NCBI GenBank assembly: GCA_965655095.1
Contig: OZ296658.1
Coordinates: forward strand, 76,384,001-76,448,000
Length of the DNA: 64,000 nt
Source of the DNA: Haplodiscus bocki
Lineage: Eukaryota
Direction of reading: 5' to 3'
Part shown: in pieces, positions 8,160 through 54,400 of the stretch
Numbering within the stretch: the stretch's first letter is position 1
Layout of the letters: each line of letters starts with the position of its first letter
Position numbers and translations under genes: made by a program
The notes under the pieces: model-generated
Database searches by the model: none
Seen by the model: only the letters and a program-made list of their open reading frames with translations
What the model was told of the DNA's origin: nothing

Positions 8160-9602
8160 AACAAGACGGCCGGCTAGCACCGGCATATTTTTCGCCCAAC
8201 TACAAATATTTTGATCAACTTTTGCAAACGGTTAAAAACAAAACAACTGTTTTGATATTAGTCTTCAAAGAGTGTTTACAAACATCTATTCGACCACTGA
8301 TTTCTGTACTCTATGCAAAAGGGTATCACGATTTTCCGTTGAAAAAAATTTGTCTCACAGTGCCGAAAAATTTCGTCGAGGAACCCTTCTGTGTTTCACA
8401 AAATTTCTGATACCGAAAAATGTTAGGGATAAGAGAGGGGGCGGGTATCACGATTTTCTGTCAAAATTGTTTTGTCTCACAGTACCGAAAAACTTCGTAG
8501 GGGAACCATTGCGTGTTTCACAAAATTTCTAGTATCGAAAAAATTTATGGATATGAGGGGGGGGGGGGGGGAGGAGCAAGATTTTCTGTGGAAAATTTTT
8601 TATCTCACAGTGCCGAAAAAATTCGTAGGGGAACCTTTTAGGGTGTCACTGATTTCGGGTATCGAAAAATTTTATACTTAAGAGAGTTATGTCACGATTT
8701 TTTGTCGAATCTTTTTGTCTCGCAGTGCCGAAAAACTTTGCTGGGGAACCCTTTTGTGCTGTGTTTCGGAAAGTTTCCGGTAGCCAAAAAGTTTATGGAT
8801 GAGAAGGGAGGGGAGTATCAAACTTTTCCCTCGAAAATTTTTTGTCTCAAAGTGCCGAAAAAATTCGTACGGGAACCTTTTAGTGTGTCATTAATTTCGG
8901 GTATCGAAAAATTTTATGCTTCCGAGGGTTATGTCATGATTTTCTGTCGCAATTTTTTGTCTCACAATGCCGAAAAATTTCGTTGGGGAACCCTTCTGTG
9001 CTGTGTTTCAGAACATTTCCGGTAGCCAAAAAGTTTATGGATAAGAGGGGGGGGGGTATCAAGATTTTCCGTCAAAATTTTTTTGTCTCACAGTACCGAA
9101 AAATTTCGTAGGGGAACCCTCCTGTGCTGTGTTTCAGAAAATTTCCGGTAGCCAAAAAGTTTATGGATAAGAGGGGGGTATCAAGATTTTCCGTCGAAAT
9201 TTTTTTGTCTCACAGTGCCGAAAAATGCTGTAGGGGAACCCTTTAGTCTTTCATTACTTTAGGGTATCGAAAAAGTTTGGATGAGAGTGTGGGGGGGAGT
9301 ATCAAGATTTTCCGTCCAAATTTTTTTGTCTCACAGTGCCGAAAATTTTCGTAGGGGAACCATTTTAGTATTTCATCAATTTCGGGTGTCGAGAAATGTT
9401 AGGGATAAATCGTAAAAAGATTTGGCAGGGCAGTGACTCGAACCCCGACCCTAATGCTTGAGAACCTTGTTGTCCTACGCCTACCGCTGTCATTTATTTT
9501 TGAATTAAAAGAGTTGGCAGTTTTGGTCAGATAAAAAAAAGAAAAACGACCCTACTGAATGAATAATTGTTCTTGTATATATTCATATACGGCGAAAAAT
9601 AA
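8160..9602 (-). mobile_element. Helentron-associated non-autonomous element (HINE/DINE-like) with an internal tandem-repeat array
   Basis: 11-bp subterminal inverted repeats TATTTTTCGCC (8186-8196) / GGCGAAAAATA (9591-9601). Terminal hairpin GCCGG-CTAGCA-CCGGC (8169-8184). Internal ~115-125-bp units with core tgtctcacagtgccgaaaaa. An inverted copy lies at 53212-54311. Confidence 0.65.
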
Positions 9603-14003: not shown

Positions 14004-15785
14004 CCCGGGTCGAACTTTTTCGGGAAAACGCCGCTATTTTTCCGGTATAGTGGCGTAAACGCCGCTAACGCCGTTAACTTACAAGCAAAACGCCGTTAAC
14101 GCTTTAATACCGACAAAAAACGCCGTTAACGTCGTTAGCGTTCCGGTTGAACGCCGTTAACGCTGTTATACCAGAAAAACTTCTGTCTACAAAAAATCTG
14201 ATTTTCTCACTCCATGAAGAATTAGAAACTCATGGTCAATCATTTATTTGACAAAGGATTACGAAGCTTTCAGAGCATATTTCCTCAAAAGTGTGAGAGA
14301 ACTGCAGGGGACTGGAGTCTGCCTGAACGCGGCGGCATTGGTAGTGTCATTGAACTTGCCATGGCCAAACAAGTTTACCAAAAAATTAATCATTTTACGA
14401 CTTGACTAGTTGGAGTCTTGCAGAAGTTTTGAGTTTTAACCTGGAGACTTCTCTCAAAAAATTTTTAGTTTATTAATTCCTGGTTACAAGTTCCATCTTC
14501 AGTGGTTACCTTTGAGGTTTTGTGGTTCCTTTGTTTTGTTTCTCTATTTCCAAACGCGAAAGTTTTGAGTTTTTAGGCTGGAAGAATCAAACGCTTATTA
14601 GGTGAAACCAATGTTTTCAAGGACCTTCATTTTTTTCTATTTTTCTTTGTAATGGTGGAGCTCTGGATCTGTTCCGGCGCGTGGTAGACCTTTCAGTGTC
14701 ATTGATCTTGTCACGACCAGCGACATAAAAGTGAGTACATAAAACTTGAGCATGTCAAGACTTGAATTCTTAATTCTGGTTTTGCAAAGTTCCAACCGTT
14801 TAGATCTGATTTTCCTTTTTTAAAGTTTCCGCTAGTTTGACTCTTACTGTCTACGAGGTCCGTGATCAATTGATGCTTTTAGAGTCCCTAGGTTTTTTTG
14901 AAAGGTCCAGACCATGCCATGACTCCATAAAAGTTGGACATATCAGGACTTGCCTTCTTAGCTCTAGTCTTGCCAAAGTCCAAGTTCAACAGTTTTAATC
15001 TGAATGCTTTTTTCAATTTTTCTTCTGTTTGTTTCTTCCGGGTGACAAGGTCCATCGTCAATAGCTGCTTTAAGGGCTGTGTTGCACGGGGTTGTTTGGT
15101 CTAGGCTAGAAATGTATTTTATTTTTTTTTTCGTCTGAAATCTTCAAACTGCTTTCCCGTTAAAACCCATGTTTTCGAAAGGCCCTTCATTCTATTTATT
15201 TTTGTTTGTAATTATGGGGCTTTAAATTTGCGCCTGCGCGTGGTAGCCTTGCTAGCGTCAGTGACCATGTCATTACCAACCAAGAATACATCAAAGTTGA
15301 ACATGTCAGGACTTGGTTTCTTAGTTCAGTTGCGCAAAGTTCCAACTGTTTTGATCTGAATGGTTTTTTTAAAGTCTTGTTTAGTTTAATTCGCTTTATT
15401 TACAGAGGACATGTTAATTTGTTGCTTTCAGAAACCTTGCGTTTAACTATTTTTCCGGTTAAACGCCGTTAACGCCTTTATACTGACAAAAAACGCCGTT
15501 AACGCCGCTTTTTTCCGGTTAAACGCCGTTAACGCAGCTATTTTTCCGGTTAAACGCCGTTAACGCCTTTATAATGACAAAAAACGCCGTTAACGCCGCT
15601 TTTTCTCCGGTTAAACGCCGTTAACGCCGCTATTTCTCCGGTTAAACGCCGTTAACGCCGCTTTTTTTACGGTTCAACGCCGTCAACGCCGCTATTTTTA
15701 AGGTTAATAACGGCTTCTGTGGCTAATTTTGACCGCCGTTAACGCTCTTTTACCGGAAAAAACTCGGCCATTATTTCGACCCGGG
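14004..15785. mobile_element. Non-autonomous CACTA/CMC-like DNA transposon (CCC...GGG ends, 2-bp TSD, subterminal repeat arrays)
   Basis: Perfect 11-bp TIR CCCGGGTCGAA (14004-14014) / TTCGACCCGGG (15775-15785), flanked by CA on both sides. Arrays of AACGCCGTTAACGCC at 14027-14170 and 15445-15745. Internal duplication (~14600-14900 vs ~15165-15440). No ORF. Confidence 0.7.
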
Positions 15786-16094: not shown

Positions 16095-16352
16095 CGGAAC
16101 ACGTACGGAACAAATATTCACTCCCAGAGTCAATACACTTGAAATTAGTCAATCTACGTACAGCATCAATTTAATTTTAACTTGAAATTAAACTGCACTT
16201 CTAGTAATCAAATATTGTTCGACTTCGTTGCAAAAAAGGTGGATTTATATTTAATAATTAAGTAATGATATTAATATAAATATGGCACCTCTTCTAATAA
16301 TAATGCTCTGTGAATACTCGTTTGTTCCGTAGCGGTTCCGTCCTAGTCCGGA
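16095..16352 (-). repeat. 3' terminal repeat (LTR-like) of Gypsy element 1, truncated by the gap
   Basis: cggaacacgtacggaacaaatattcactc...gttccgtcctagtccgga matches 30033-30289 at roughly 80% by eye. Confidence 0.8.
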
Positions 16353-16494
16353 TCAATTTGGTTCCGTATAATTACGTAACCATATTTATGTGCGTTGTTA
16401 AAGATACGTATTATATACGTATCCGTATATATGCACAACAGTTAAAATACATAATAGAGTTATATTAAGAGTTCAGTCAATGTTTGAGTTTCTT

Positions 16495-17185
16495 CTAAGC
16501 ATTGGGTGGCTTTCCTTGAGGTAAGGGTTGGCCGCATGCCTCGCAGGTGTGCTGCGACACTCTCTTTTTTTGAGGAAAAGACATCCCCATGCTTAGTCTT
16601 CTCGTCTGTCGCGGTGGAGGTGGTGGAGTAGAAGAAGGGCTCGAGGCGACAGACACATTTCTTGGCTCGTTAGACTCGAAGGTGTCGCTCGACGAAATAT
16701 CCCAGTAGACTCTTCTGGGCTCATCATCTGTATAAAATGTGTCATTGTCAGTCGTAGTATGCGTTGTGTCCCACCCTTCAATAGTACTGACGTTCATCGG
16801 AGGCGTTGAGATTGGGGATGGGATGGTTGGCTTCGGTGACTGGGGGCTGTATTCATCATCCACTCGGTTTGCGGCCATCGTTGCCAGTACATTGAAGGGA
16901 TTGGGCGGCAGATTGAAGTCGTTGAGGCTTGGCGGAACTATTGGTTGTTGATTGCCAGACCCATAGGGCTTTGTGGAGTCATTCGAGTCAGTCCAGCGTC
17001 ACAATTCGTGGTTCCGGGGAGGCGACAAAGGAGATTGTGACGACCCCTCTTTCCATAGCTCCGGATATCTCCGTCGAATTTAGGATCGCAGAATTAATAT
17101 TTCGGACTGGGCTGCCTTCTGTTGATGTTTGTTCCACGTTAAAAACATCAGACTCTGTGGAGCAGGAGTCCAGAGATATATTCAT
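16495..17185 (-). pseudogene. Second accessory ORF of Gypsy element 1 (Ser/Pro/Thr-rich, C-terminal CxxC), sense to gag-pol, disrupted
   Basis: Track ORFs 16988-17302 (from MNISLDS) and 16495-16878 are collinear and of similar low-complexity composition; ends HTCEACGQPLPQGKPPNA just before the 3' terminal repeat. Confidence 0.5.
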
Positions 17186-17619
17186 AATGATGATTTGTTT
17201 GGAGTTTTGTAAATATGAGAAAATTAGAGATAAGGTTTGAGCTGCTGATATCAACGAAGCGACTGTAAAAAGTGATGACTTAAATAAGAAGTCAGTCGGC
17301 ATCCGTCGCCAAGTGGGAGATTCTTTGAAGTTCCCGCGGTATCACTCTAACTGCTTAAGTCGAATATTTGGCGGTATAACAGGAATTGATAACTTGTAAA
17401 CAAATCAAGGAGTGAGTTTGAGAATGAGGAAAATTTGAGTTTATTTCCTCAAAGTATTCTTGAAAATATGATGGTGATGATGATGATCACGATGACGTCA
17501 TTGCTGGCAGACAAATCGGTCATGATAAAAATTAAGATAATAATGATTTTCATGTATGAACTTATGAATCCACCATGTAATAACTTATTAGCCACGTTCT
17601 TCGAAACAATTCGTGAAGT

Positions 17620-20600
17620 ATGTCCAAAGACAGTGTTATCTTCCTAGCGGAGATCAATTCGTTCCTGGTGGACAATTAATCAGCTGTTCAAGCTGCTGTT
17701 TCCTCTTCCCCTTTTGTTGTCCCCGAAGAAAATGTTACTGGAGAGAGAGGCGAGGAGAGTCCTGTGGGAGGTCTGGAGGGACAAATTGAAGTAGGCGGTG
17801 TGTGCGGGACCGAGGCGGGCACTGAAGCTGATGCGGAGGACGAGGATGAGGACGTCGATGTTATTGGTGGCGTGGAAGAATTTGGGATTTCTGGGTATGA
17901 ATCTGAGGGATTCACGCTCTCAGAGATCCTTCGCCGCAAGAGACTTGAGAAGAATGCGTCCGTGGGTGTCATTGACGCCGCTCACCTTCCACAATGTGAG
18001 TTTTCAAATCTTCATCGATTACCATTAGCCTTGTTTAGAATTTCTTTGCTCGCCAGTCAATGAATTCTATTTGGGCTAGTTTTGCTACGCGCGCACTCAA
18101 GTGTGAAGATGACTTCGTGAGGCTGTTGTGTTTCAGTGTACAATCGCTCAAGAGAACCAGTGGTTCATTTTGGTGAGCCTGAATTGCCTCGGGCAGACGT
18201 GTCTGGGTCCGAGTTTGAGGTTGGCGCGCCGACTTCAGAAGAGGAAGCCGAGAGAAAGAAGAGTCAGACAAAACGCGCTCCGAAGAGTCCTCTCACGGCT
18301 GTTCTTGAGAGTTGGTTGCTCTCTATTCTACATTGCAAGTTTTTGTCATATCAGTGGCTCATTCCCTGTTTATTTCTGGGTGATGCCGAGACGATTCCGG
18401 GAGTATCCGGAAATAAAGAAGTGTCGACTGGCGTGGAGACTGATGGGCAGTTGAGCGGGCGTCAAATTATTGTTACCAGGAGCCTGGTACCGTTGGCTGG
18501 GTGCCCCAGCATGATGTCCCTGAGCCTGTCCACAGTCGAGGTCGAAGCAGGGAGCTGTTAGAGCGGGCGTTTGATGATGGTAATTCTTGTGCTTGAATGA
18601 GGAATTTACTAATATTGTTCCAAGTTGGCTCCAAGTTTTTACCATGTTTCTTTCTTTTGCAGATCAGTTCGTGACCGATCCCCCTGCCACTGTAATTCGT
18701 GCCACTGGGCATCAAATGGTGTCCTTGTATCGCTCCGTTTGCGAGGAGGAGAAGGCTCAGTTGCTGTCTCCTTCGATGAACAGTTAGTATTTTTCCGCCT
18801 TTTTGTGTTCAGTAGTATTGTCTCAGTCCATATTTTGCGTTTTTCTGTTGGTAGAGCTGAATGAAGTGCTGGACCGACTATAACAGGGACCCTCACAGAG
18901 TCCGCTGAGAATTGAGACGTCGGACAGCAGCGGAGACGAGACAGATGCAAGTCCGGGGCGCCGGAAAGTTCTGTCGAAGAAAACTTAACGGATGAAGAAG
19001 GTTTACGCGGCAACGGAGCTTGGCAGGATTTTGTGACAGGGCCATTAGATGCTGTCAATATGCCAAGCCACTTTTTTTGTCGGTTGTGCCGAAAGAATGT
19101 GTCCGTGCTCACACATGGGCACCATGAAGTATTGCGGCATTTTCAGGGGCGTTGTCACTTTGCCCGTGACCAGCGTTTGCGTCTTGAAACACCTGGGTGA
19201 CGCATGCTGGATTTTCAAGGAAATTCCTTGACTGAAGATGAGCTGGAGCGGCAGAGGGAGAAGATTCAGAAGGTTCCTCTTGTAGTACGGGATCGCGAGC
19301 ATCCGTTTGCAGAGGACTTGATCTCTGACGAAGCTGGTGTGATCGACCCTCAGTTGCCAGTCCTGACGAAGGTGTACTGCCTGGTAGGTGGGTTGAAGAT
19401 GGGAGGCAGCTACGGGCTCATCGAGAAACTGTGGGCGCAGTTTGTGCTAACCGCCGGGCCAGTGAACCGTGAAGTCGCGTGGACACGAGATGAAGTTTTG
19501 GTAGGTTCCGTAGATTTCCGGAACCCCTGCGTCTCATTACTGATTCACATTGTTGTTTTGCGTTTAGTCAATCATCCTTACTGGAATTCTGCCCCGAAAT
19601 TTGTCACGAGTTGTTGGGTGGGCAAAGGCTCATCATTTCTATGGCTTTGAATTTGAAAAGCGTGGCGATTCACTGTGGGCCTTCATGAGAACGTGGGAGA
19701 AGGGCACTTTCCGTCGGGTCGCTGTGGATGTTGTCGACCGTTTTACAGTTGATGCAACCCACGATGTAGCAGTGCTAGGGTCAGTTGTGTCTGCAGTTGG
19801 TAGTTCGGCGTCCCTTGTTGCCATTTCTGGCGGGTCGCATGTGCTGGCTGACCCGTACAAGGAGTATTTGGGAAGTGGGTACTCGCACAAGCTGGTGGAG
19901 TATCCCATTTTTGATCTGCGTCTCCTGAAGCGTTGTTTGCAGAAGGTGTCATCTTCCGTTTTTGGGTCTTTGGATCCGTTCCTTATGACGGAATTCATCG
20001 TCACGCGCCTGAAGGGTGCCGAACATCGTGATTGGATGATGTCCCGATCCAGTCTTCGCCGTACCATCATCACCGGAGAGCTGTCAATGCCGTCTCTTGT
20101 TGAAGTCGTCAGCAACATTGTGGGGGTATGGCCCCTCATCGTGGTGTACCTCAAAGAGACTGGTCGAAAAACTGATGGCGACAACTTAGTGGTATAATTC
20201 ATTCTGCACGTTTTATTTCATTTGGAGTTTCCACTCCTTCATCTTGCTGTTTTCTTTTTAGAAGAAGGGAATCGATGGCTATTTCTACATCGATCAGATG
20301 GCCCGCAGCAAATTCCGTCTGTTCCACTTGATTCTCAAGATCTGTAAGTCCAACTTCTTGCACTTTCCCCATCTAATTCACGTTGGTACGTATACATTCC
20401 GGTAAATTTGATAGGGGATTCTGGGAAACTTGTGGCAGTGTTCCTAGTTTCCTCATTTTGGGACACTTGGGTAGTTCGTGGAGTTTCCACTTTTATACCC
20501 GTGTGGCATTGTCTGGGCGTCTCCTTGGGTTGTTTTGGGGACTCCTGTGGACTGCTGAGTTTTTTTCAGTGTGTAGTTCCCACTCATGATGAACTAGGAA

Positions 20601-22121
20601 TTTCTAGTAGCACTGCTAGTTGGCTCCTGAACTCCACGGGTCGAACTAGGAAATTTGGGTATCACTCCTAGTTCGATCCTCATTTGGTAGTCTGCTTTTG
20701 GGAAGGGAGGGTCCAATTGTCATTATCTCGTCTCACCTGTCTCTGTTGTTTCAGTTGCACATAACTTAACCGAACTGAACTCTGGGCGGACTGACTATGG
20801 CTACTTGGCATTCGGTGAACTCTCGCGCTTTGTGTATTTTCTCTTGCAGAAGGTGAAGCGGAGTAGTGATTTGCCCGTGATTGAAAAGGGGGAAGCGTAC
20901 ATGCTTCCAAATCATTCGTGTTTTGGGGCAATTCCTGAGGAGCTTTTCCTGGAACGGACCCGTGTGTTATTATCCCTTAAGAAAATCAACAGCAGCTTCC
21001 TCCGCAAAGAGTTCCGTAGGGACCGTATGGACTGTCGTTGTTTCCGTGAGGATCTCGTGAGCACCATCCTCTCGACAGTTGCTGCGCGTTCTCCAATTGG
21101 CCAGGGTCTCAGTTGTTTCTGCCCGGAGATTGTGATTGGGAGCGACGACTATTCCGCTTTCCATCTCTTTGGGCAATTGTTGGATTGGCTGCTTGAACTT
21201 GGCTGGGTCAGAGGATCAGAGGTCGAGCCTGCAAAGGCCGAATTCCACTCTTTTGTGCGTGAGCAGCGACAGGTGGAAACAAGCAGCAGCAGGTCTCGTG
21301 CTCCGATCAACAGCGTGTTTTCCATCTGCAATCAGCCCCGTTTCCGTTCTCGGCGGAATTCGCACAAAGTTGGTATTAGTTTTTTAAGGTCATCTCGTTG
21401 TTGTCATGATCTAACACATGTGCTGTTTTAGATTTTTCACTTGGCAGCACTAATGGTGAAGGGTCCTTCGGAGTTGCATCCCGTCTTCACTGTGTCGCTG
21501 GATGCGGCTGCAATTGACCATGAGAAGGTGAAGGGGGTGGTGGCGTGTGTACAGGAATTTGTGCGTCATCCCTTGTTTACACAGAGAAGTTTTTTCTCTG
21601 AAACTGGGATCAGCATGCTAAACACTGCTGTCGCTGCCGCAGATGCTGTCCGAAACAGTGCTAGATTTGACCCTTGGGGAGCTATTGGTGTCGAAGCTGG
21701 CCCCGTTATTGCTGATTTAAAGTCTTGCCGCGAGAAGATTTCGTCCCCGAGGAAGGCGGTTAAGGATACACGGGAGCGGTGGTTCAGTGTTGAAACCGTT
21801 GCCTCATCAGCTGTCGGTGAGAGTGCGCCCCGAACAACTGTACGCAACTCTGATGTTGTTGAGGTGGGGGACGTGCAGTAAGTGGCGGAGCATGAGAAGC
21901 TTGGTCTCCCTTGTTGTAGTCGGTCAAGTCCCGGGAAAGGCAAAAAGAGGCAACCGTAAGTGAGTCCTGGTGTCTCAAAAAAACAGTTTTCTGTTTCCAA
22001 CCCGTCTGTTAGCCGTCCCTCATTCGAGTCTGCTCTTGAGAAAAGTTTTGAGAGTTCGGGGGCGAAGAGAAGTGGTCGCGATCGCCGTAATGCCCCAGTA
22101 TTCCAAGGGGGATACCAGTAA
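17620..22121 (+). pseudogene. Intron-containing accessory gene, antisense to gag-pol, inside Gypsy element 1 (~1,200 codons; C2H2 BED/hAT-like zinc finger); exons ~17620-17995, 18137-18579, 18663-18782, 18855-19500, 19568-20191, 20262-20385, 20755-21368, 21432-22121
   Basis: Seven GT...AG introns with pyrimidine tracts join the separate track ORFs (17764, 18136, 18587, 19204, 19601, 20805, 21441 frames) in phase. Contains the motif FCRLCRKNVSVLTHGHHEVLRHFQGRCH. About six point-stops and two 1-nt frameshifts show recent decay. Confidence 0.75.
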
Positions 22122-22614
22122 CAATTTAACTGTATATTTGTATAAACTTCTCACATTTAGAATTTTAGTAATAGTCTGAATTTATTTAGCATAGCCGTCT
22201 TTTGCATGGGTGAAATGAGTAGGAGATGTGTTGCCGTCCAGGAATTAACCTCGCACTACTGGGAGTACCCGTATGTATTCCGTAGTGTTTCCGGATACAA
22301 AACTTTGGTGAATTTTCTGGAATGGTTCCGGAATGGTCCCGGAATCAAATTTTGGTTGATTTTCCTGAATGATAACGGAATGGTTCCGGAAACGTTCCAT
22401 GTATCGTCTGAGGATATATTGGTGTAATTTGATAAGGATCCGATTCCCAGTCGCTTTAAGTGCCAAAATTTGTGTTACTCTGTCCGTAGTGCTCAGTAGT
22501 TACTTCGGGGGGCCATGTAAGTGCTTGAAAGAATATGTCGGCTTTCCGCATGGCGCATTCCTGGGGTTTCTGGAAAATGTACGTATGCGTTCCGTAGACA
22601 GTTGCTTGACAGAG

Positions 22615-25600
22615 TCAATATCTGTAATCGTCGATGCAATTTGGCCTTGGGTTATGGCGTAGATCGCATTTTGAGCTGCGGGGGTTGGTAGGCATAGGGT
22701 CAAGTTGCTCTGCACTCTTATCCGCATCAGGCTGCGTGTCGTGATCCACGTTTCTTTCGTCATATGATCCATCTGGCTGAGGGGTATTTCCTGGGGAAGT
22801 TTCTCGTATGATTCCCGGCGTGCTCCTCGTTTCATCAGTTGCCTGTTTGGATCGTAATGTAAGTTCGGGTGGACTGGGTGTTGTCAAACTATTGTAATCG
22901 CTGTCAAATTTTGGCTCGTCATATTCACACTCCCACGCCCTGGCATATATATCATCAAGTGTAATGACAACTTCCGGGTCTGGTTGCCACTCACGTTGTC
23001 TGACTGGTATGTCTGATATCAGTTGGCGGGGTGTGAATTGTCGCAGCCTCATTCGATGTAGAATTTGCGTTCTGTTAGTGCCGATTTTGCGTACCAAAAA
23101 ATTTTCGTTGGGTCACACCTTTTCAATAATATATGGCCCGATCCAGCGGAAGTCCGTAAAAGGAATATTACTCCCTTGGTGATCTGCTTTCGGCTGTAAT
23201 ATAAAGACGTAATCGGCTTGTTTGAGTTTTGAGGCGTTTGCTTCCCTATCATAAGACGCTTTGTATTTGATTTATGCTTGCATGGCATTTTTGCGGACGT
23301 CCTGGAAAATTGTTTCTGTTTGTTCAGACACATCTTGGGCAATCTGCGAGTGTGGAGGGGGATTTTTCTGTGGACGAATACCTATTTTTAAATCAAGGAT
23401 ATTATAAGGAATACGTCCATGAAATACTCTGCTCGGCTCACAGCCGATACTCGCTTGATAAGATGTGTTGTAATTAAGGACCGCAATACTGACGTATTTG
23501 TGCCACAGTGATCTCCGCTCGCCTGTCTCAATCTTAAATGCTTGACTGATTGACGCGTGAGGTCGTTCAAGTAGTCCAGTTGTTTGAGCGTGCTTGGTGG
23601 TGGCGTGCTTTAAAGTAATGCCAAGGACGCCGGCCACTTCTTTAAATACATTTGAAGTAAAGGCTGTACCTTTATCTGAGATGAGTGTTGTGGGTAGGTA
23701 GGCGTGCTGAGTCATGATGTTAATTAGCACTTGAGCGACTGTTTTGGGGTCCTGATTTGATGTCGGGTATGCGAATAAATAGCGGAAAAACACATCAATG
23801 GCTGTCACAATGTTTTCATAGCCACCAGATGGCGGTAATCCCGGTACCAAATCAATCTGCATGACATCTTCTGGCGCAGTATTATACTCATTCGGGTTTT
23901 GCAGCGGAGGGCGGCTTAGTCGGGGATTAATCCGTGCTTCTCTAAAGCATTGTCCACATGACAAAACCCACTCCCTTATTAGTTTAGCCATATTTGGATA
24001 ATAATATTTTTGTCTGTATGCGATTATCGTCTTGGTAATTCCAGGATGTTTACCAAATTCTCTGTGGAGATTCCGGAGTACTTCGTTAACAAGCTGCTTC
24101 GGTATGAGAATTTGGTAGTATTTGACGCTGCCAGTTTCTCCGTAGTATTTCCGGAATAGGAGTCCATCTTTGAGGATAATGCGATCCTCATTTGCTTTGT
24201 AATGTGTGTATCGTCTATCCGTTGCTAATAGCACATTATCGTGTGGTTGGCCAAGTATTTTGAGTTTGAGGTTCTTCAATACTAGATCGGCATCTTGCTC
24301 TACTCGTATTCGTGCGCTTGCTTTAATTCCGTTGATGGAGTACGACGTAGTATTTCCGTCTATCTTTGTAAATTCTTTGATGCTTGGCTTCAATGAGGAT
24401 AGTTCCTGGTTTATTACCCATTCTGCTGCATTTTTCTGAGATTGTTCTTTCCTTTGTAGGATTTGTTCTTCAGTTTCATCTTGACTATCTGGTTGCGTGA
24501 AGAAGAATTGTTCTTCATCTGCGACATCTGAGGAAGATGTTGAAACCTCTATGGGTGTTGTTTGGACATCTTCTCGGATTTTGAGATGGATCTTTTCCGT
24601 AACTTGCAGATCCAACCTTGAGTGAAAGTCAGCCGCTGTGTTAACTGAACCAGCGATATGTGCTATTTTAAAGTTGAACAGGAGCACATAATCACATGCG
24701 TTCCACAAGGATGGTGGAATGGCTTTCGTCTGGAAAAACGGGGTAACTGATTTGTTGTCCGTCAATACAATCGTCGGTTTTGATGTGTCCCACGGAATGT
24801 GCGCAAATTCAAGAAATGCCATGTACATTGCCAAAAATTCCTTCGAGTAAATTGACATCTCAAGCCGTGCGAGGGAAAAGACTTTTGATCCAAACGCGAC
24901 TGGTACATACGTTTTTCTTTCTGATTGGATTTTTTGATCCGGTTTGTCTTCAATCATAAGAGCATAGCCTGCACTCCTGAAACTTGCATCGGTCATTAAG
25001 ACTAACTGTTTTCCAGGAATGGGTTGCTCAAGTGCCAATTGACACGCATCACTCAGTGCTTTGTTGACTGAATCGAAGGTTTCTTTTAATTCTGAGGTGA
25101 TGTTGACTGGGACTTCTGCTTTCAAAAGTTTATAGAATGGGTTGAGCTTTTCAGCCCTTCTGGGAATTTAATTTCTGTAGTAATTTACGAAGCCCAGATA
25201 GCGCTGCAAAGCCTTCTTGGATTTGGGGAATCTCAATTTGTTTAAAAAGTTTTGAATTTTATGAGATTGTGGTAATACTCCCTCGGAGGAAATGGTTCTG
25301 CCTAGGAATTCAACCTATTTGACTCCAAAAAGGCACTTTTCAAATGTCAGCTTCGATCCTGCTTGGCGAATGCACTTGAAGACTGCGCGAATGTTCCTGG
25401 TAAGATCCGTAGCATCATTGGCTGCAATTCCGGTGTCATCCACGTATTGAGCACATTGGTCAGCTTTGACAATGGGTCCAAGTACTCGCGCATGAAACTC
25501 AAAAAAGCAGACACAGATCTGCTAAGACCTTGTGCAAGTCTTCTGTAGGCAAAAGTTCTGCTAGCAAAATTGAATGCAAGCATTTCCACTGAGCGTTGGT

Positions 25601-27497
25601 CCGCCATCTGCAAGCAGTGATACGCTTGGGAGCAATCAAGCTTACAGAATAGTGATTTTCCAGCCAGGTGTTGTGCTGCGTCTGACAAAGTCCTGACTGG
25701 ATGTTTATTATTAGTATAATCATCTGCAATCAGGGTGTTGATTTTCCTGAGATCCACAAGGAGACGTATTTTTCCGTTGGGTTTCCTCTGTGCAAATATG
25801 GGGCTTGCGTATTTTGAGAACGATAACTCCGTGATGATCCCATGCTTGTGCATAAGGGCGAGATCAACAATTAAGTCTTCTTCCAGATGGATTGGCATTG
25901 GTAAGCTCTGGCTTTAAACAGCTTTATCATCCTTTGGTGTGAGTTTTACCTTTAACTCTGTATTCATTCCAATATCCATTCTCTGTCTAGTAAATATATC
26001 ATGATATTCAACTAGAATGTCTTCAAATGCTTGTTTCTCAGTTTCCATGAGCAGTGTGTCTGTCCAATCAAATCTTTTTAGGAATTCCGTTCGTGATTCA
26101 CTGTCATCTTTTGGATTTAGTTTTTCCTTTCGTTGCAATTCACAGAGTTCTGTGAGGATCCGTGTTTGAATCGGGGTATGATCTTCTGTGTTGCCAGGAT
26201 TTTTGGGTGTCGGAAACCAGAAAGTATTGTTTTGTTGAATTCGTTCATTTGTTCTGAGTAGCTCGGTCAGGTAAGTAACCAGATCTGGGTCACCTTCAGG
26301 AATCATACTAAGTATTGCCGTGTCCACTGGTTTAAAAAATTTGGATTGCTCCGCAGTCACTACGGAGAACTCGACAATTTGTGTGTTTTGGTTGATTGTA
26401 TAAGGTGATTCCGTTGTGTTAGTTACTCTGACTGCTATTTTCCTGTCAATTATTGTTGACATTGAATGGGATATGATTAGGTTCGCGGCTTTTGTGAATT
26501 TTTCCAGTGGGGTCACAGTGCCTGTTGTATTCCATTCCGATGAGTGGTCAACAAATGCTGTAATTGTTTTCGTTGTCATCTGTGGTATTGTTATACTATC
26601 GTGAATGAGAACAGGTTGAGGCTTAGCACTTGCTTGGCTTGATGCACTTTTGACTTGCATTGTCAAATGGGGAAAATGGATGAGACCGTGCGTGGTATCA
26701 ATGACCACACTGTTGTGTTTCATGAAGTGCAAACCAACAATTGGTCCTGTCAAATTCTTCATCACTACGAAGTGTTCTGCAAATATATGATCGCCAATGT
26801 CAAATTTAAGTGTGGCTGTTGCTGTTGGCTACTCTAACTGGCCATTTGCTACTTGGATTTGAAAATTGGGCGGATCATCGGTTTTTAGGATGTTAGACAG
26901 GGCTTGCTGTTGAATTCTGTCCAATTCTTTCTGGGCTATTGCACTAACATAGGCTCCCGAGTCATTAAGGGCATTTATTGTTAAGCCATTCTCAAAATCC
27001 AGAGGGACATACAACATTTCCTTCTTTCGTTTGAGGACAATTGTGGAGGATAGTGGCATATATAACTCATTAGTAATTTCATCTCTCACAAGTTGTTCTT
27101 GAATTTGTGAAGTTGTAAATTCAGGAGGAGAAGTGTTATCATTTCCATTGCCCTAGGTTGTCAGACCTATTTCATTTCGTTGGATTTCGTTTTGTTGTTT
27201 GTTGGAGTCATTGGGGCACTGTACTGGTATGCTCCTAATTTGGTTTTCAAGGAGTGATTCCGTGTCGGATCCGGATACTTGAGATGAGGTTTCCTTTATT
27301 GTCGACGTCTGTGCTTCTACATCATTTTTCTGTTTGGGCGTGTGGGTATGTTTATTAGTTTCATTAGTCAGATCATTATGAATATTAGTTAAGTGAGTCT
27401 CCTGAGGTTGCTGCCAGACAACCTCTGGGATTGGTGGAAGTGTTAAATGATTTACCTCCGGTCTGTCAGTTGCAGCTCCGGAGTGGAGACGTGGCAT
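22615..27497 (-). pseudogene. pol: Pol polyprotein (protease, RT, RNase H, integrase with GPY/F motif) of Gypsy element 1, broken by a few stops and frameshifts
   Basis: Protease ALNDSGAYVS; RT LLVDLRKIN, LDCSQAYH, QGLSRS, YVDD (~25435-25446); RNase H LMTDASF, YSKEFLA, LTDNKS; integrase HREFGKH...CGQC, QIDLV, ISDKG, GLLER; WIGPY at ~23130. The PR-RT-RH-IN order indicates Gypsy. Confidence 0.92.
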
Positions 27498-27499
27498 AT

Positions 27500-29107
27500 T
27501 CAGTTTAAATTTTGGGCTACAGCCTGGCTATTTTCTTTTGAGTCATTTTGAACAGCTCTTTCTTGGACCTGACTTTGTCTTTCCGGATTTGTCTGCCGGG
27601 GAGGCGGTCTATTGGCTGCATTGACTCCATGATAGCATCTCTCTGTCGAATAGTTTGTCTTACCACATGTCTCACAGGGTGAGTAAACAAATTTTGGCTT
27701 CCTTTCGGTTCTGTTACTGTTCGTGTTGTTGTTGTTAGGATTGTTGACGTTGCCGTTGGGGTTAGACGTTTTGGCATCACTGTTTTTGTTTCCAGGATTG
27801 TTTTGATTATTTTCAGCTTGTTCTCGCTGTTTTTTCAACAATCGGCACTGATTTTTATAATGTCCTGGTTTTTTACAATAATGGCACGATGGTTTGGCTC
27901 TGTCAGCACTTGCATTGACAGTATTGTGGCTCACAGTACTTATTTGTAGCTCGTCAGTGGCTTCCCAACCATTTAGTTCTAGTTCCTTTTCTAGGTGTGT
28001 CACAATCTGTTCATATGTGCCGTTTTCCAAGTGGGCCTGATTCATTGATTTTTTCAGGTGCGGTGGCATCTTGGCATATATGAATTGTTCAATGATGGCA
28101 TGGGCAGCAATTCTGAATGCGTCTTTGGCCAGTTTTTGAAGTTCGTCAAGAAAATCTACTAACTTTTGATTTGCTGGGTTGAAGACAAGTTTTTGGAATT
28201 TATGTTCTGCTGTCGCCATTGATTGGGGTTTTACATATTTCTTTCGAAAAACTGCCAGAATTTCTCCCAGATTCTCTGGGGTAGGGCCATTTATGTTTTT
28301 AAATGTTTGTAATGCATCTCCCCTCATGACAGAATAGAAGTAGTTATTTCTGTCCTCCTCTGTCAACTGATTGTGGATTTTGAGATTCGTTTGGAACAGA
28401 TCTTCAAACAACTCGAACGTTTCAGATTTCCAATCAAACGTTGGCATCGTTGTCGTGAGTGACTTTGGCAATTTGGAAATTCTGTTAATATTGTTAGGGA
28501 AATTTGCAGAATTTTTGTTGTTTGCTAACTGCTGAAGTGCCAACAAAATTTGGTCTGCCTCAATCGTCGCAGGGGTGTTTTCGCTGCGAAATTGGGGTTG
28601 ACTTGTAGAGCGGTTCTTTTTCTGCTTTCCGGAAGAAGTGCTAGGGGAGCAGTACATAACTTTTTCGTGAACTCCTGTCACCATGTCCTGACCAGCTGCA
28701 CTCTCTCTTTGGACTCCTGTCGCCATGTCGTGGCGATCCTCTCGGCCATAGAAGAGGAGGCCTGCTTCACGATGAGGGTTACTCTGGGAGTCATCCTCAT
28801 TCGTTCCCTGGTTTATACTAAACCTATTCCGGGACATCTCCGGAGTGGTTCCGGAGTGGCCCAGGAGTAGTGGGTTCATGAGGAAGTCATCAAGTCTTGC
28901 TAGCGCACCTAGTTTACGATTTTCCGTTCTGCTAGGTTCTTGCGACAACCTTTTGGTGACCCTTCCTTCAATTTCCTCGGAAAATTGAGTTATAGAGTCC
29001 TCCTGTGATCTGGGAACATTTGAGTTTGATGCCAATTTACTGCTGGGATGTTCCTCAAAGTTTTCCTTATTCAAAGCTGCCAGTTTCTTTTTGTTGCGAG
29101 TTGCCAT
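27500..29107 (-). CDS. gag: Gag polyprotein (535 aa) of Gypsy element 1
   Basis: Uninterrupted ORF; capsid-like region (MPTFDWKSETFELFEDLF...); CCHC knuckle CHYCKKPGHYKNQC and a second, degenerate knuckle CETCGKTNYSTERC. Confidence 0.9.
   Translation of the reverse strand: MATRNKKKLAALNKENFEEHPSSKLASNSNVPRSQEDSITQFSEEIEGRVTKRLSQEPSRTENRKLGALARLDDFLMNPLLLGHSGTTPEMSRNRFSINQGTNEDDSQSNPHREAGLLFYGREDRHDMATGVQRESAAGQDMVTGVHEKVMYCSPSTSSGKQKKNRSTSQPQFRSENTPATIEADQILLALQQLANNKNSANFPNNINRISKLPKSLTTTMPTFDWKSETFELFEDLFQTNLKIHNQLTEEDRNNYFYSVMRGDALQTFKNINGPTPENLGEILAVFRKKYVKPQSMATAEHKFQKLVFNPANQKLVDFLDELQKLAKDAFRIAAHAIIEQFIYAKMPPHLKKSMNQAHLENGTYEQIVTHLEKELELNGWEATDELQISTVSHNTVNASADRAKPSCHYCKKPGHYKNQCRLLKKQREQAENNQNNPGNKNSDAKTSNPNGNVNNPNNNNTNSNRTERKPKFVYSPCETCGKTNYSTERCYHGVNAANRPPPRQTNPERQSQVQERAVQNDSKENSQAVAQNLN
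27503..27509 (-). promoter_or_regulatory. -1 ribosomal frameshift slippery heptamer U UUA AAC at the gag/pol junction
   Basis: Gag ends AAT TTA AAC TGA; the -1 frame reads TTT AAA CTG AAT ATG CCA into the pol ORF 27153-27497. A GC stem CTCCGG...CCGGAG lies downstream at 27456-27483. Confidence 0.75.
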
Positions 29108-30024
29108 TCTACGGAAAAGTGTTTTGACGATTAATGATTGGTTGTCTTTTTATTGTAGAGTCAAATTGGTGGTTTACAGTATTAACGTTAGGAAATAAAG
29201 AATAAATGAAGAATAAATGAAGACTGGTTAAGTATCGGCAGTACTTATCAATCAAAAATAATTGTACATTCGTTCTGAAGAAGGTTCAATACAATTCCTA
29301 AGAGTTTTCGAAAAGGTTCTGAAAAGCTCTTGAAAAATTATGAAATGTTCCCTTGAAGAGCTTTCAAAAGTTCTGCAAAGTTCTGTCGAATTCCCCAAAA
29401 GTTCTGATGTTGTACTTTCGTTTCTCCTATTTATACTTTTTCCTGGCGGGAAACATAATTGTTTGCACGCCAAGTCAAAGTACAAATAAGGAAAAGTACT
29501 GTCGAAAGGTATAGCATCAAAGGTAAGAGTGCCGACTCTGGCGGGAAATAAACAACTTTTCCATCCATCTCTTCCCTCATAGGACGCGCCTTTTCCATCT
29601 TTCGACAGAAAATGGATGGTCCTAGTCCGTCAGAGATGGACATCAAAGTGTTTATTCCCGCGCCGACACTTTTGCTTACAGTTCTACAAAAATATTCCGT
29701 AAATGGAAAAGGAAAAAGATTTCCTTAATTGTAAAAATGGATTAAAAAATAAATATGGAAATGCATGACTTTAAATAATATAAATAATCATCACCCTCAC
29801 ATTCACCTCATCAATAACGACAGCTCATTAGTTCTTACTCTTTGGAAATGAAGAGAAACTAGTAGCACTACTAGTTTACTCCTCATTCGTACGAGTGGCA
29901 CTAGTGGATTCCGGAATGATTCCGGATTCGTTCCGCATTCACTAGTAGTGGTCGTATTCTTTGCTCAAATGAGGAGTAGTTCCGGAATGATTCCGGAATC
30001 ACTACAGCGCGGCAGAGTAATAAT

Positions 30025-30309
30025 AGTAGCGACGGAACACGTACGGAACAAATATTCACTCCTAGAGTCAATACACTTGAAATCAGTCGTTGTGCTTATA
30101 GCATCAATTTAATTGTAGTTTCTAATTAAACTGCAATTCGTGCAATCAATCAAACCGTCAGATTCATTGAAAAAGGTCGATTTATATTTAAAAATTAATT
30201 AATTATTTTATTGTAAAAATACCACCTTTGAAGTTAATAATACTCTATGAATACTGGTTTGTTCCGTAACGGTTCCGTCTTAGTCCGGAAAAAATAGTAA
30301 GTATCTACA
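30025..30309 (-). repeat. 5' terminal repeat (LTR-like) of Gypsy element 1
   Basis: Direct repeat of 16095-16352; runs from (a)GTAGCGACGG to ...TCTACA, resembling TG...CA LTR ends; lies ~900 bp upstream of the gag ATG. Confidence 0.8.
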
Positions 30310-51400: not shown

Positions 51401-54400
51401 GAATGCAACTGAAATAGTATGAGCTCTCAGAAGCTTCAAAATTTTGTTTTTTTCTCGAATTTTTTTTGTGATAAGAACTTCTAAAAAAATCACTGAAGTT
51501 GGCAAATTTGCTGTAGAATGCGTATCAAATGATTTTATTTTTTATAAAATGTCTTTTCCACCTTAATTGTGATGTTTGTTGCTAAAAATGTAGAAATTTT
51601 TCAAATTTGGAAAAAATAGAAAAAAATGCTGCGAGTGTTCATGAAAAAAAACGCTTCTATCTTTTTAAAAGGCATTTTAACCAAATGGGAAAGCGGAAAA
51701 TATACCAGTGGTAGCCGGCCGTCTTGTTTTAATTCAGCTGAAAACTTGAAGCGAAAATCTTCAAAAACCTTTGACCAAATCTCGGGATTGAAAAAGTTGT
51801 TTTTCAAACATGTAAAAAAAGCCGATGATTAGAATCACCTTTGTTACGTGCTTACTGAGATTTTAGCTTAGTATTGGTTTGCAATATTTTTTCAGGGCCC
51901 AATAATTCATTGGTGTGTTTTCACAATTGCAATAATTTATTTTTACAGGACAATATATTTTTGTTCATTATTGGAGTCTTAGTAGTGTATTGTTCTACAA
52001 TATCTAACGTCCCTGTAATATGCTTTACGGGTTCTTTAAAGAGCAACATTGAATGAGTCCAAGAGAAAGATAGCCCAGCATCTTGGCACTGATAGCCCAG
52101 CATCTTGGCACTGATTTATTATAACTAATTTTGATTTCAGTTGGAATCGATTGGAGATTTTTTCAACTTTCTCTGGGTTTTATTTAGAAAAATGGCCGAT
52201 GACTGAGTCAGGGTATGTGAGTACTTCTGGGTGCACGGCCAGTGTCGTTGTCATCAAAGGTTCGCATGTGTTTGTGGCACATGTAGGAGACTCTTCTGTG
52301 GTGCTGGCAGAAAACTGCGGAAACTCGACGCTAGATGAACCTGTTAATGCCAATATGGTTAGCCTTTATGGCTGCTAGCAATTTTAGACCGCGGCAAAGA
52401 TACTTACCGTAAAACCTGTAATTGAAGGCCATGGCCTTCTATTTTTCAACCTTCTCACTAGGGTGGCCTTCTATTACAGGTGGCCTTCAATTACAGGGTG
52501 GCCTTCTATTTTTCAACCTCCTCGCTAGGGTGGCCTTCTATTACAGGTGGCTTTCAATTACAGGTTTTACGGTAGTCGACGAAGTGCGTAGTAACGTATT
52601 TAGCAAATTCTCTGCTGTAAATTGCTCTGACTGCACAATGCTCTACATAGCAGGCGTGATATTTGTTTCGAAAGTTATCTCCAAAAAAGCTTTCAGCAAG
52701 AAGTCACTTTTCAACTTTTCTTGAAGTTTTTTATTAGGCATTAGCACCAGATTATTGCCATATAGTTTTACTTTCTTCACACATCTAGAACAAAATGTTA
52801 TCACGATCTATCTGTGCTCATTTTTAGAACCGCGTGGATGTGAAATTAGTTCTTCCCGACTAATGTATTTGGAAAGTGAAAGTATTTATTTACTTTATTT
52901 AACTTTCGCATACTTTTTGATTTCGTTCATTGAATTCAATCCCTGTTGTTTTACTAAAACTTAATCAAGTTTCATGGCGTTTTCGTCTTCTATTGTAATT
53001 GAAAATCAGTCGTTTTACTTGCTATTTATTGGTTTGTTTCTAGTTTTTGAATATGCAGCTTTCATAAGCATTTCTTGCTGCTTATGTTGATTTAATGCAA
53101 TTTTTTGATCCGATTTAAAAATGCGTGGTTGAGATGGTTTGAATTTTGTATTTGTTTGAAATTGCTCGAGTTGAAAATTACTAACAGCGTTTTTGAAGAG
53201 GTAGAAGCTTGTTATTTTTCGCCGTATATGAAATATACAAGAAAAATTATTCATTCAGTACAGTGTACAGTGGGGTCAAATTTCTTTTTCTTTTTTTTTC
53301 AGTGCAAAACTGCCAACTCTTTTTATTCAAAAATAAATGACAGCAGTAGGGTTAGGACAACAGCGTTCTCAAGCAGTAGGTTTGGGGTTCGAGTCTGTCG
53401 TGCCAAATATTTTTACGATTTATCCCTAACCATTTTCTATACCCGAATTTATTGAATTACTAAAGGATTCACCCACGAACTTTTTCGGGACTGTGAGACA
53501 AAAATTTTTCGACGGAATATCTTGATACTCCCCCCCCTCCTCCTATCCAAACTTTTTCGCTACCGGAAATTAATGCAACAGTAAAGGATTTCCCTACGGT
53601 AATTTTCGGCACTGTGAGACAAAAATTTTTTGACGGAAAATCTTGATACTCCCCCCCCCTCCTTCGTATCCAAACTTTTCCGGTACCCGAAATTACTGCA
53701 ACAGTAAAGGATTCCCCTACGAAAATTTTCGGCACTGTGCGACAAAAAACTTTCGTCGGAAAATCTTGATACTCCTCCCCTCTTATCCATAAACTTTTTC
53801 GCTACCGGAAATTTTCTGAAGCACAGCACAGAAGGGTTCACCTGCGAATATTTTCGGCACTGTGAGACAAAAAAATTTCGACAGAAAATCGAAAATCGTG
53901 ACATAACCCTCTGAAGCATAAAATTTTTCGATACCCGAAATCAGTGAAACACTAAAGGGTTCCCCTACGAAATTTTTCGGCACTGTGAGACAAAACATTT
54001 TCGACGGAAAATCTTGATGCCCCCCTTTCCCCCGTCTCTTATCCCTAGCAGTTTTCGATAGCAGACTTTTTCTGAAACACAGAAGGGTTCCTCGAGGGAA
54101 TTTTTTGGCACTGAGAGACGAAAATTTTTCAAGGGAAAATCGTGATACCCTTTTGCATAATGTACAGAAATCAGTCGTGGAATTGATATTTGTAAAAACT
54201 CTTTGAAAACTAATATCAAAACAGTTGTTTTGTTTTTAACCGCTTGCAAAAGTTGATCAAAATATTTGTAGTTGGACGAAAAATATGCTGGTGCTAGCCG
54301 GCCGTCTTGTTACTTTTTTGAATCATTTTTCTTTTTTGGCCGATTTTGCAATGTTCTCACTTTCTCTTTCTGCCGCACTGGAGTACTGCTGGGTGTTAAT

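Follow-up and report, generated by a model that had tools for sequence, protein, structure and literature searches.

A clade of Gypsy retrotransposons in Haplodiscus bocki with a large, likely spliced antisense gene of probable hAT transposase origin

Can a long terminal repeat (LTR) retrotransposon keep a complete, intron-rich gene on the strand opposite its own genes, and what would such a gene do for it? The question is raised by a 64,000-nt stretch of the Haplodiscus bocki genome (contig OZ296658.1, positions 76,384,001 to 76,448,000), referred to here as the window, in whose positions all coordinates are given. Positions 16095-30289 are a single decayed copy of a Ty3/Gypsy LTR retrotransposon, with the gene order gag, protease, reverse transcriptase (RT), RNase H, and integrase on the minus strand. 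Between the end of pol and the 3′ LTR, an earlier note made from the letters of the window had described a spliced antisense gene of eight exons and about 1,200 codons. We read the locus as one member of a Gypsy clade that carries a nine-exon antisense gene of ~1,190 codons, which is likely spliced, likely derived from a hAT DNA transposase, and likely to encode a nuclear DNA-binding helper of the element; the probability of this reading as a whole is put at roughly 0.6. Below, family A is the window element's own family and families B-D are diverged groups, and the genome searched for copies comprises ~1.5 Gb.

In the window, all seven introns of the earlier model have a GT donor and an AG acceptor preceded by a T-rich tract; GC content is 0.33-0.46 in these introns and 0.44-0.53 in the exons. 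Of 39 other copies, 35-39 retain the GT of any given donor, and the same range holds for the AG of the acceptors, where the mean background retention of these dinucleotides is 0.845 for GT and 0.862 for AG. The proposal that the introns bring separate open reading frames (ORFs) together in phase also holds, as frames fixed independently, from the absence of stops and from third-position variability across copies, join in phase. The size proposed for the gene is borne out as well, and what had to be corrected is the count, which becomes nine exons and eight introns. The acceptor of the additional intron (18311-18379) is canonical in 32/37 copies and degenerate in the window copy, a length difference near 18,370 falls within it, and it recurs at the matching position in families B, C, and D. 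To account for the phase of the junction at 18580, two other features were considered, a donor at 18557 and an intron of 29-47 nt near 18,450, and both were dropped after cross-family comparison and indel analysis. Judged from these sequence comparisons, the seven listed introns and the eighth are real, and the antisense gene is likely spliced. No processed copy is seen, since none of the alignment joints listed (15 of 875 and 15 of 50) matches an intron exactly and the intron at 19501 is missing from none (0/13) of the natural ORFs that hold both of its flanking motifs.

The outer limits of the gene are equally stable. Its start ATG at 17620 is kept in 34/38 copies and its stop at 22119 in 38/39, the summed exon lengths stay within 3,524-3,571 nt in 35 copies, and TATAAA at 22141 is a candidate poly(A) signal. 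The light decay ascribed to the window copy can be itemized as six in-frame stops (17677, 18881, 18986, 19198, 21879, and 21957), each of which occurs in 0 or 1 of 37-39 other copies, and two frame breaks, which are now placed at the level of exons, near 18,500 and 19,030. The break near 18,500 is common to ~15/37 copies.

The antisense gene is under purifying selection as a protein-coding sequence. Within family A, changes shared by at least four copies mostly date from the spread of the family, while singletons mostly arose after insertion. Shared variable columns lie at third codon positions in 34/46 cases in exon 6 (p 8e-9), 40/54 in exon 8 (p 7e-10), 35/54 in exon 9 (p 5e-6), and 18/26 in 19035-19500; the integrase, taken in its own frame as a control, has 77/108 of its shared changes at third positions. 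No periodicity is found in singletons, introns, or the LTR. Shared indels number 1.9 per kb in coding versus 24 per kb in non-coding sequence. Between families, synonymous sites are mostly saturated, and the ratio of nonsynonymous to synonymous substitution rates (dN/dS) is about 0.04-0.3 where estimable (0.04-0.27 in the between-family comparison).

The antisense gene travels with the retrotransposon. When one of its exons is used as a DNA query, at least 40 matches at 91-100% identity are obtained, and another exon, used as a protein query, gives at least 150 matches at 83% or more. Among the DNA matches, 39 were retrieved, 20 of them end to end and 19 on one side only. LTR, every exon, pol tail, and integrase are all present in 20/20 of the end-to-end copies, so the copy-flanking comparison suggested in the earlier note places both LTR and integrase beside the antisense region throughout; in the 19 one-sided copies, the LTR is found in 18 and nearly the whole integrase segment in 16. 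Full-length family-A copies measure ~15.7 kb with LTRs of 1.8 kb. A proper LTR pair of 93-99.6% identity is present in 15/20 copies (the LTRs found in L002 and L013 are not the element's own pair and were not counted), and an exact 5-bp target duplication is present in 6/20 under a strict motif test, both ends having been located in only 10. The duplications share no common sequence. The window copy's own outer LTR ends are missing, and the duplication is seen in other copies. The integrase is also broken in many copies, with the window's length phase in only 21/36.

The same arrangement extends beyond family A. Protein search yields 35 relatives at 44-91% identity, three of which led to 86, 90, and 51 genomic matches; 20 of these matches were retrieved and constitute families B-D (rows L100 and L087, which had been entered on the wrong strand, were dropped from cross-family comparisons). 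Relative to the window, families B-D are ~70-83% identical in integrase and 35-68% in the antisense exons, and their layout is the same, with the pol tail in 20/20, integrase in 19/20, and a sense-strand ORF described below in 19/20. The gene is thereby linked to LTR and pol in four family groups, as expected if it is part of the mobile unit of an animal Gypsy lineage; a segment that is single, or found without gag-pol, which the earlier note had named as evidence to the contrary, was not seen, and the gene is at one constant position in all families examined. For four introns, positions could be projected onto families B-D, where their donors (18783, 19501, 20192, and 21369) read GT in 17/17, 19/20, 20/20, and 18/20 copies and their acceptors AG in 16/17, 16/20, 19/20, and 18/20, several of the misses being projection offsets. 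Intron lengths and sequences differ between families, and most intron positions are kept. The longest intron is shorter in families B-D, of which only family D allowed its donor to be placed. In a profile search of a protein-cluster library, 1,491 clusters match at E 0.001 or better. A single exon 8 relative at 27% identity (L087:593-1039; G000:C6:11642593-11643039) has decayed pol fragments ~1 kb away on the opposite strand and is possibly an older lineage of the same kind.

Two further observations concern the evolution of these families. A non-autonomous derivative family (L080-L099) of at least 40 copies keeps only the first antisense exons; no pol and no later exons were found in the stretches retrieved, and the promoter motifs described below are lost. 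This family was considered as a source of the diverged full genes and ruled out, as it is without pol and later exons. In comparisons of close families (L109/L111 versus L113; L116/L118 versus L119), exons 5-9 show about double the synonymous distance of integrase, which suggests either that recombination has exchanged modules or that integrase codons are under additional constraint.

In the antisense protein, a C-x2-C...H...H motif is present in 13/20 rows, with weak Pfam C2H2 hits only (E 0.14-0.17), and the protein has basic patches. A structure model was built from the natural read-through ORF over exons 5-6. Its core, with predicted local distance difference test (pLDDT) values of 57-76, runs three strands-helix-strand-helix, a predicted RNase H-like topology. 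Among 48,161 chains the best fold match is the Hermes hAT transposase (8edg_A; Z 5.5, root-mean-square deviation 5.7, 115 aligned residues, model 239-354 on chain 137-261), level with two unrelated folds (Z 5.3 and 5.2), a ribosome-particle chain and a glucokinase. Other RNase H-like folds lie near it, namely Argonaute (Z 4.8), RT domains (4.3-4.8), and integrases (4.0-4.3). Among the listed Atlas hits that carry a family, all are hAT-type (DUF4371, FAM200-ZBED5 RNase-like, and Dimer_Tnp_hAT), with scores of 0.76-0.78, which are below 0.9 and count as leads only; exon 6 alone gives no usable Atlas hit. At the end of strand 1 the residue is Glu in 13/14 sequences and at the end of strand 4 it is Gly in 13-14/14, where hAT proteins have catalytic aspartates; the register was set by eye from predicted strands and compared with the genome's own hATs, and the third D-D-E residue was not located. 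The catalytic D-D-E aspartates thus appear to be absent from the modelled antisense protein, and the protein is inactive as a transposase if this register is correct. The C-terminal dimerization domain PF05699 has no Pfam match, and a fold search with the C-terminal half (a model of pLDDT 39) returns generic helical matches only. Taken together, the antisense protein probably descends from a hAT DNA transposase.

Several observations weigh against the reading proposed here. As to descent, the link to hAT is weak: the tie at the top of the fold search comes from a model whose mean pLDDT is 43, a third of shuffled proteins give ten one-family Atlas hits, the protein has neither a Pfam match nor a PDB sequence-profile match, and profile comparisons with hAT alignments (including one built from 61 sequences) are negative. 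As to the gene itself, exons 1-3 have no significant third-position excess, the upstream introns are not more variable than the exons within family A, and no donor could be assigned to the longest intron in families B and C. An unbroken spliced frame is found in 0/35 family-A copies, and a copy whose LTRs are 99.6% identical carries frame breaks in exon 1.

The earlier note had also proposed a promoter of the gene's own, and a conserved candidate block now stands in that place. The block at 17345-17615 aligns at 67-76% to 7/7 diverged copies tested, whereas intron 6 and the 3′ spacer have no match. It contains, at 17493, the word TGACGTCA, a CRE-type palindrome, which occurs in 26/37 family-A and 17/20 family B-D copies, and a TATA-like word ~55 bases before the antisense ATG is found in 28/37 and 14/20 copies of the same two sets. 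The antisense gene is quite probably transcribed from this block. Just upstream of the main ATG, at 17570-17580, CCACCATG is kept in 33/37 and 17/20 copies and, in family A, is directly followed by a stop; a core-promoter motif and a minimal upstream ORF are two possible explanations for it. At 17320-17345, GCGGGA and TCCCGC face each other in all family groups, possibly as a putative hairpin or binding site.

Since the 3′ LTR begins at 16559, ~1 kb from the antisense ATG, the gene does not start next to the repeat, and most of the gap is filled by a conserved sense-strand ORF. This second ORF contains the polypurine tract and ends inside the 3′ LTR, its start codon is inferred, and the window copy has one frame break near 16,990. 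Variable columns show a third-position excess (39/52 in 16560-17000), and dN/dS is 0.08-0.30, with purifying selection in all family groups. No clear membrane segment is found (the best 19-residue hydropathy values are 1.65 and 0.29), and its longer piece has no Pfam match. An assignment to the env-bearing, errantivirus-like Gypsy elements was considered and rejected, as the element has no membrane-glycoprotein ORF3 and the sense ORF is short, rich in Ser, Pro, and Thr, and low in hydropathy. The antisense gene and the sense ORF point away from the block between them, which suggests a shared two-way promoter.

How such a gene could arise and persist can be outlined as follows. In the history that we regard as the probable one, a hAT element would have integrated behind pol in reverse orientation, its terminal repeats and its catalytic residues would have been lost, and the gene would have been kept. 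An intron that lies antisense to the genomic RNA is not removed from it by splicing and survives reverse transcription. Because the splice signals of the antisense introns are on the other strand, these introns would stay in the LTR transcript when it is copied. Splicing would act on a second transcript, started in the internal block, and would give a zinc-finger protein with basic patches. The exon 1 breaks in the copy with 99.6% LTR identity, together with the spread of the non-autonomous family, indicate that the antisense product is not needed in cis; a gene that is dispensable in cis yet selected in the families examined fits a trans-acting helper. Tentatively, the protein may act in trans as a regulator that promotes element expression or shields it from silencing, and by analogy with Grande gene23 and HBZ, introduced below, regulation or anti-silencing is favoured over integration targeting. 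In its fullest form, the proposal would be that a Gypsy lineage domesticated a DNA transposon, so that a backward, intron-rich, inactive hAT gene is kept as a DNA-binding regulator or anti-silencing factor and shares a two-way promoter with a second accessory gene; for this combination we would allow somewhat less than an even chance.

Other explanations have to be set beside this one. Short ORFs with GT-AG flanks are common and no transcript was seen, so the exons and introns could be chance patterns or the shadow of a sense-strand gene. However, in exons 6, 8, and 9 all three minus-strand frames have fixed stops while the plus frame is open and carries the codon signal, and intron positions are retained while intron sequence diverges, which leaves this explanation with almost no credit. 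Scarcely more credible is the idea that this Gypsy copy hosts a nested DNA transposon that is separate and still mobile. Its appeal lies in the transposase-like features and in the introns, which are common in DNA-transposon genes, but against it stand the constant position across families, flanking inverted repeats that never exceed 9 bp (E 1.5 or worse), and the missing Asp at two expected strand ends, and even the 27%-identity relative lies near pol fragments on the opposite strand.

The two remaining alternatives accept a resident gene and differ over its source or its task. The gene may act on RNA or small-RNA silencing and come from another RNase H-fold protein, such as a host nuclease, a PIWI-like domain, or a member of a different transposase superfamily. 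The closeness of the Argonaute, RT, and integrase folds to Hermes in score, and the want of a sequence-profile link to hAT, favour this reading, which is nonetheless unlikely, given that Hermes ranks first in the fold search, that the Atlas families are hAT-type, and that the order of zinc finger, RNase H-like core, and long helical region fits the hAT layout. Alternatively, a hAT-derived protein could act at integration and tether the integration complex of the Gypsy element to selected chromatin or sequences, a task for which a zinc finger on a transposase-like scaffold is well suited. This is unlikely to a slightly greater degree: the target duplications are without shared sequence, and the differing synonymous distances of integrase and exons 5-9 in close family pairs suggest that the two modules can be exchanged independently.

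Antisense genes in retroelements have precedents. Extra antisense ORFs behind pol are known from plant Tat-lineage Gypsy elements, including Grande gene23, RIRE2, and Retand TRP28 (PMC7264820, PMC11963269). Grande gene23 is driven by an upstream promoter of its own and its product is nuclear, and TRP28 is predicted to bind DNA (PMC7264820, PMC11963269), whereas the origin and function of the Tat antisense ORFs are described in a review as unknown, without similarity to genes of other transposons (PMC7264820). Like these, the present gene is antisense, lies between pol and the 3′ LTR, and is kept in most copies; the word intron, however, is absent from the Retand paper (PMC11963269). TRP28 (PF04195) has no Pfam match in the window or in the family proteins. 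Boty-like Gypsy elements of Botrytis likewise carry an extra antisense gene, brtn (PMC8365987, PMC4227169, PMC7264820), but Boty is fungal and bears a chromodomain. In human T-cell leukemia viruses (HTLV), hbz of HTLV-1 and APH-2/3/4 are spliced antisense genes with a nuclear product that regulates transcription of the element (PMC10186651). They resemble the present, likely spliced gene as antisense genes of an animal retroelement; in contrast, HTLV is a true retrovirus whose hbz promoter lies inside the 3′ LTR and whose 31-kDa basic leucine zipper product is unrelated in sequence (PMC10186651). Animal LTR elements enlarged by captured genes include those with the bdelloid ORF3s (PMC5408684) and planarian Burro (PMC6431247), for which the available text describes no antisense or intron-containing cargo. 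With hAT transposases and their domesticated forms (Hermes; ZBED5/FAM200/DUF4371), the antisense protein shares, on weak matches, a zinc-finger motif, a predicted RNase H-like core, and a helical region, but it has no detectable sequence similarity to them, no catalytic Asp in register, and no terminal repeats, and is carried by an LTR retrotransposon.

The earlier note's statement that it did not recognize the architecture as described stands in part. Antisense genes in Gypsy elements were already known from Boty brtn and spliced antisense genes from HTLV, while no animal Gypsy element with a multi-intron antisense or hAT-derived gene was found in a search of titles and abstract openings that did not extend to subscription journals, Repbase entries, or supplements. 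New here are the animal clade, the size of the gene, its breadth across families, and its likely DNA-transposase origin, a hAT-like nature that the earlier note had not proposed. The clade thus provides a large, multi-family animal case of an antisense extra gene with measurable selection and a candidate DNA-transposase origin. If the hAT origin is true, one class of transposon has domesticated the enzyme of another. The clade also shows that a complete gene rich in introns can persist for long times in an LTR element, provided that it faces backwards, and ORF-based repeat annotation would miss such genes.

Table 1. Positions of the features of the element within the window
Feature	Position	Strand	Basis
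3′ LTR, visible part	16095..16559	-	Copy alignments, loose ends at 16559
Sense-strand extra ORF, ~230 codons, Ser/Pro/Thr-rich	16495..17185	-	Third-position excess, family B-D hits
Polypurine tract adjoining 3′ LTR	16560..16571	-	
Conserved non-coding block, likely internal promoter, possibly two-way	17345..17615	.	67-76% DNA identity to diverged copies
Antisense gene, exon 1 (ATG; acidic, low complexity)	17620..17995	+	
Exon 2	18137..18310	+	
Additional (eighth) intron	18311..18379	+	
Exon 3 (window-copy frame break near 18,500)	18380..18579	+	
Exon 4	18663..18782	+	
Exon 5; C-x2-C...H...H zinc-finger-like motif; window-copy frame break near 19,030	18855..19500	+	
Exon 6; predicted RNase H-like fold, no catalytic Asp at expected strand ends	19568..20191	+	
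Exon 7	20262..20385	+	
Exon 8; predicted all-helical	20755..21368	+	
Exon 9 with stop codon; basic C-terminal tail	21432..22121	+	
pol, decayed: protease (weak), RT, RNase H, integrase, C-terminal tail	22615..27152	-	
gag region with zinc knuckle, and primer-binding-site position adjoining 5′ LTR	27500..28725	-	
5′ LTR, outer end missing in window copy	28726..30289	-	

In the window copy, RT, RNase H, and integrase score above the curated Pfam cut-offs, and protease and gag score below them. The rest of its 3′ LTR is lost in an N gap; the family LTR is ~1.83 kb long and ends in TG...CA. A TGG-led conserved stretch, a candidate tRNA primer-binding site, lies at the expected position beside the 5′ LTR. 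The spacer between the antisense gene and pol contains two copies of a 47-nt tandem repeat (22300-22391), with one unit fewer in some copies of the element. Outside the element, the window holds two inverted arrays of ~122-nt units, 45 kb apart (8160-9545 and 53285-54311), and an array of 31-nt units (14055-15760), all of which probably belong to other repeat families. Elsewhere in the genome, a single match to Wnt at E 1e-15 or better was found, at G000:C3:31196892-31197824, as one open 452-codon frame without introns; a Wnt-family match above the Pfam cut-off marks the host as an animal. The genome also contains a hAT family (L133; G000:C1:51725600-51728300) whose frame is open over 624 codons and which has many copies of equal score; it was probably active recently.

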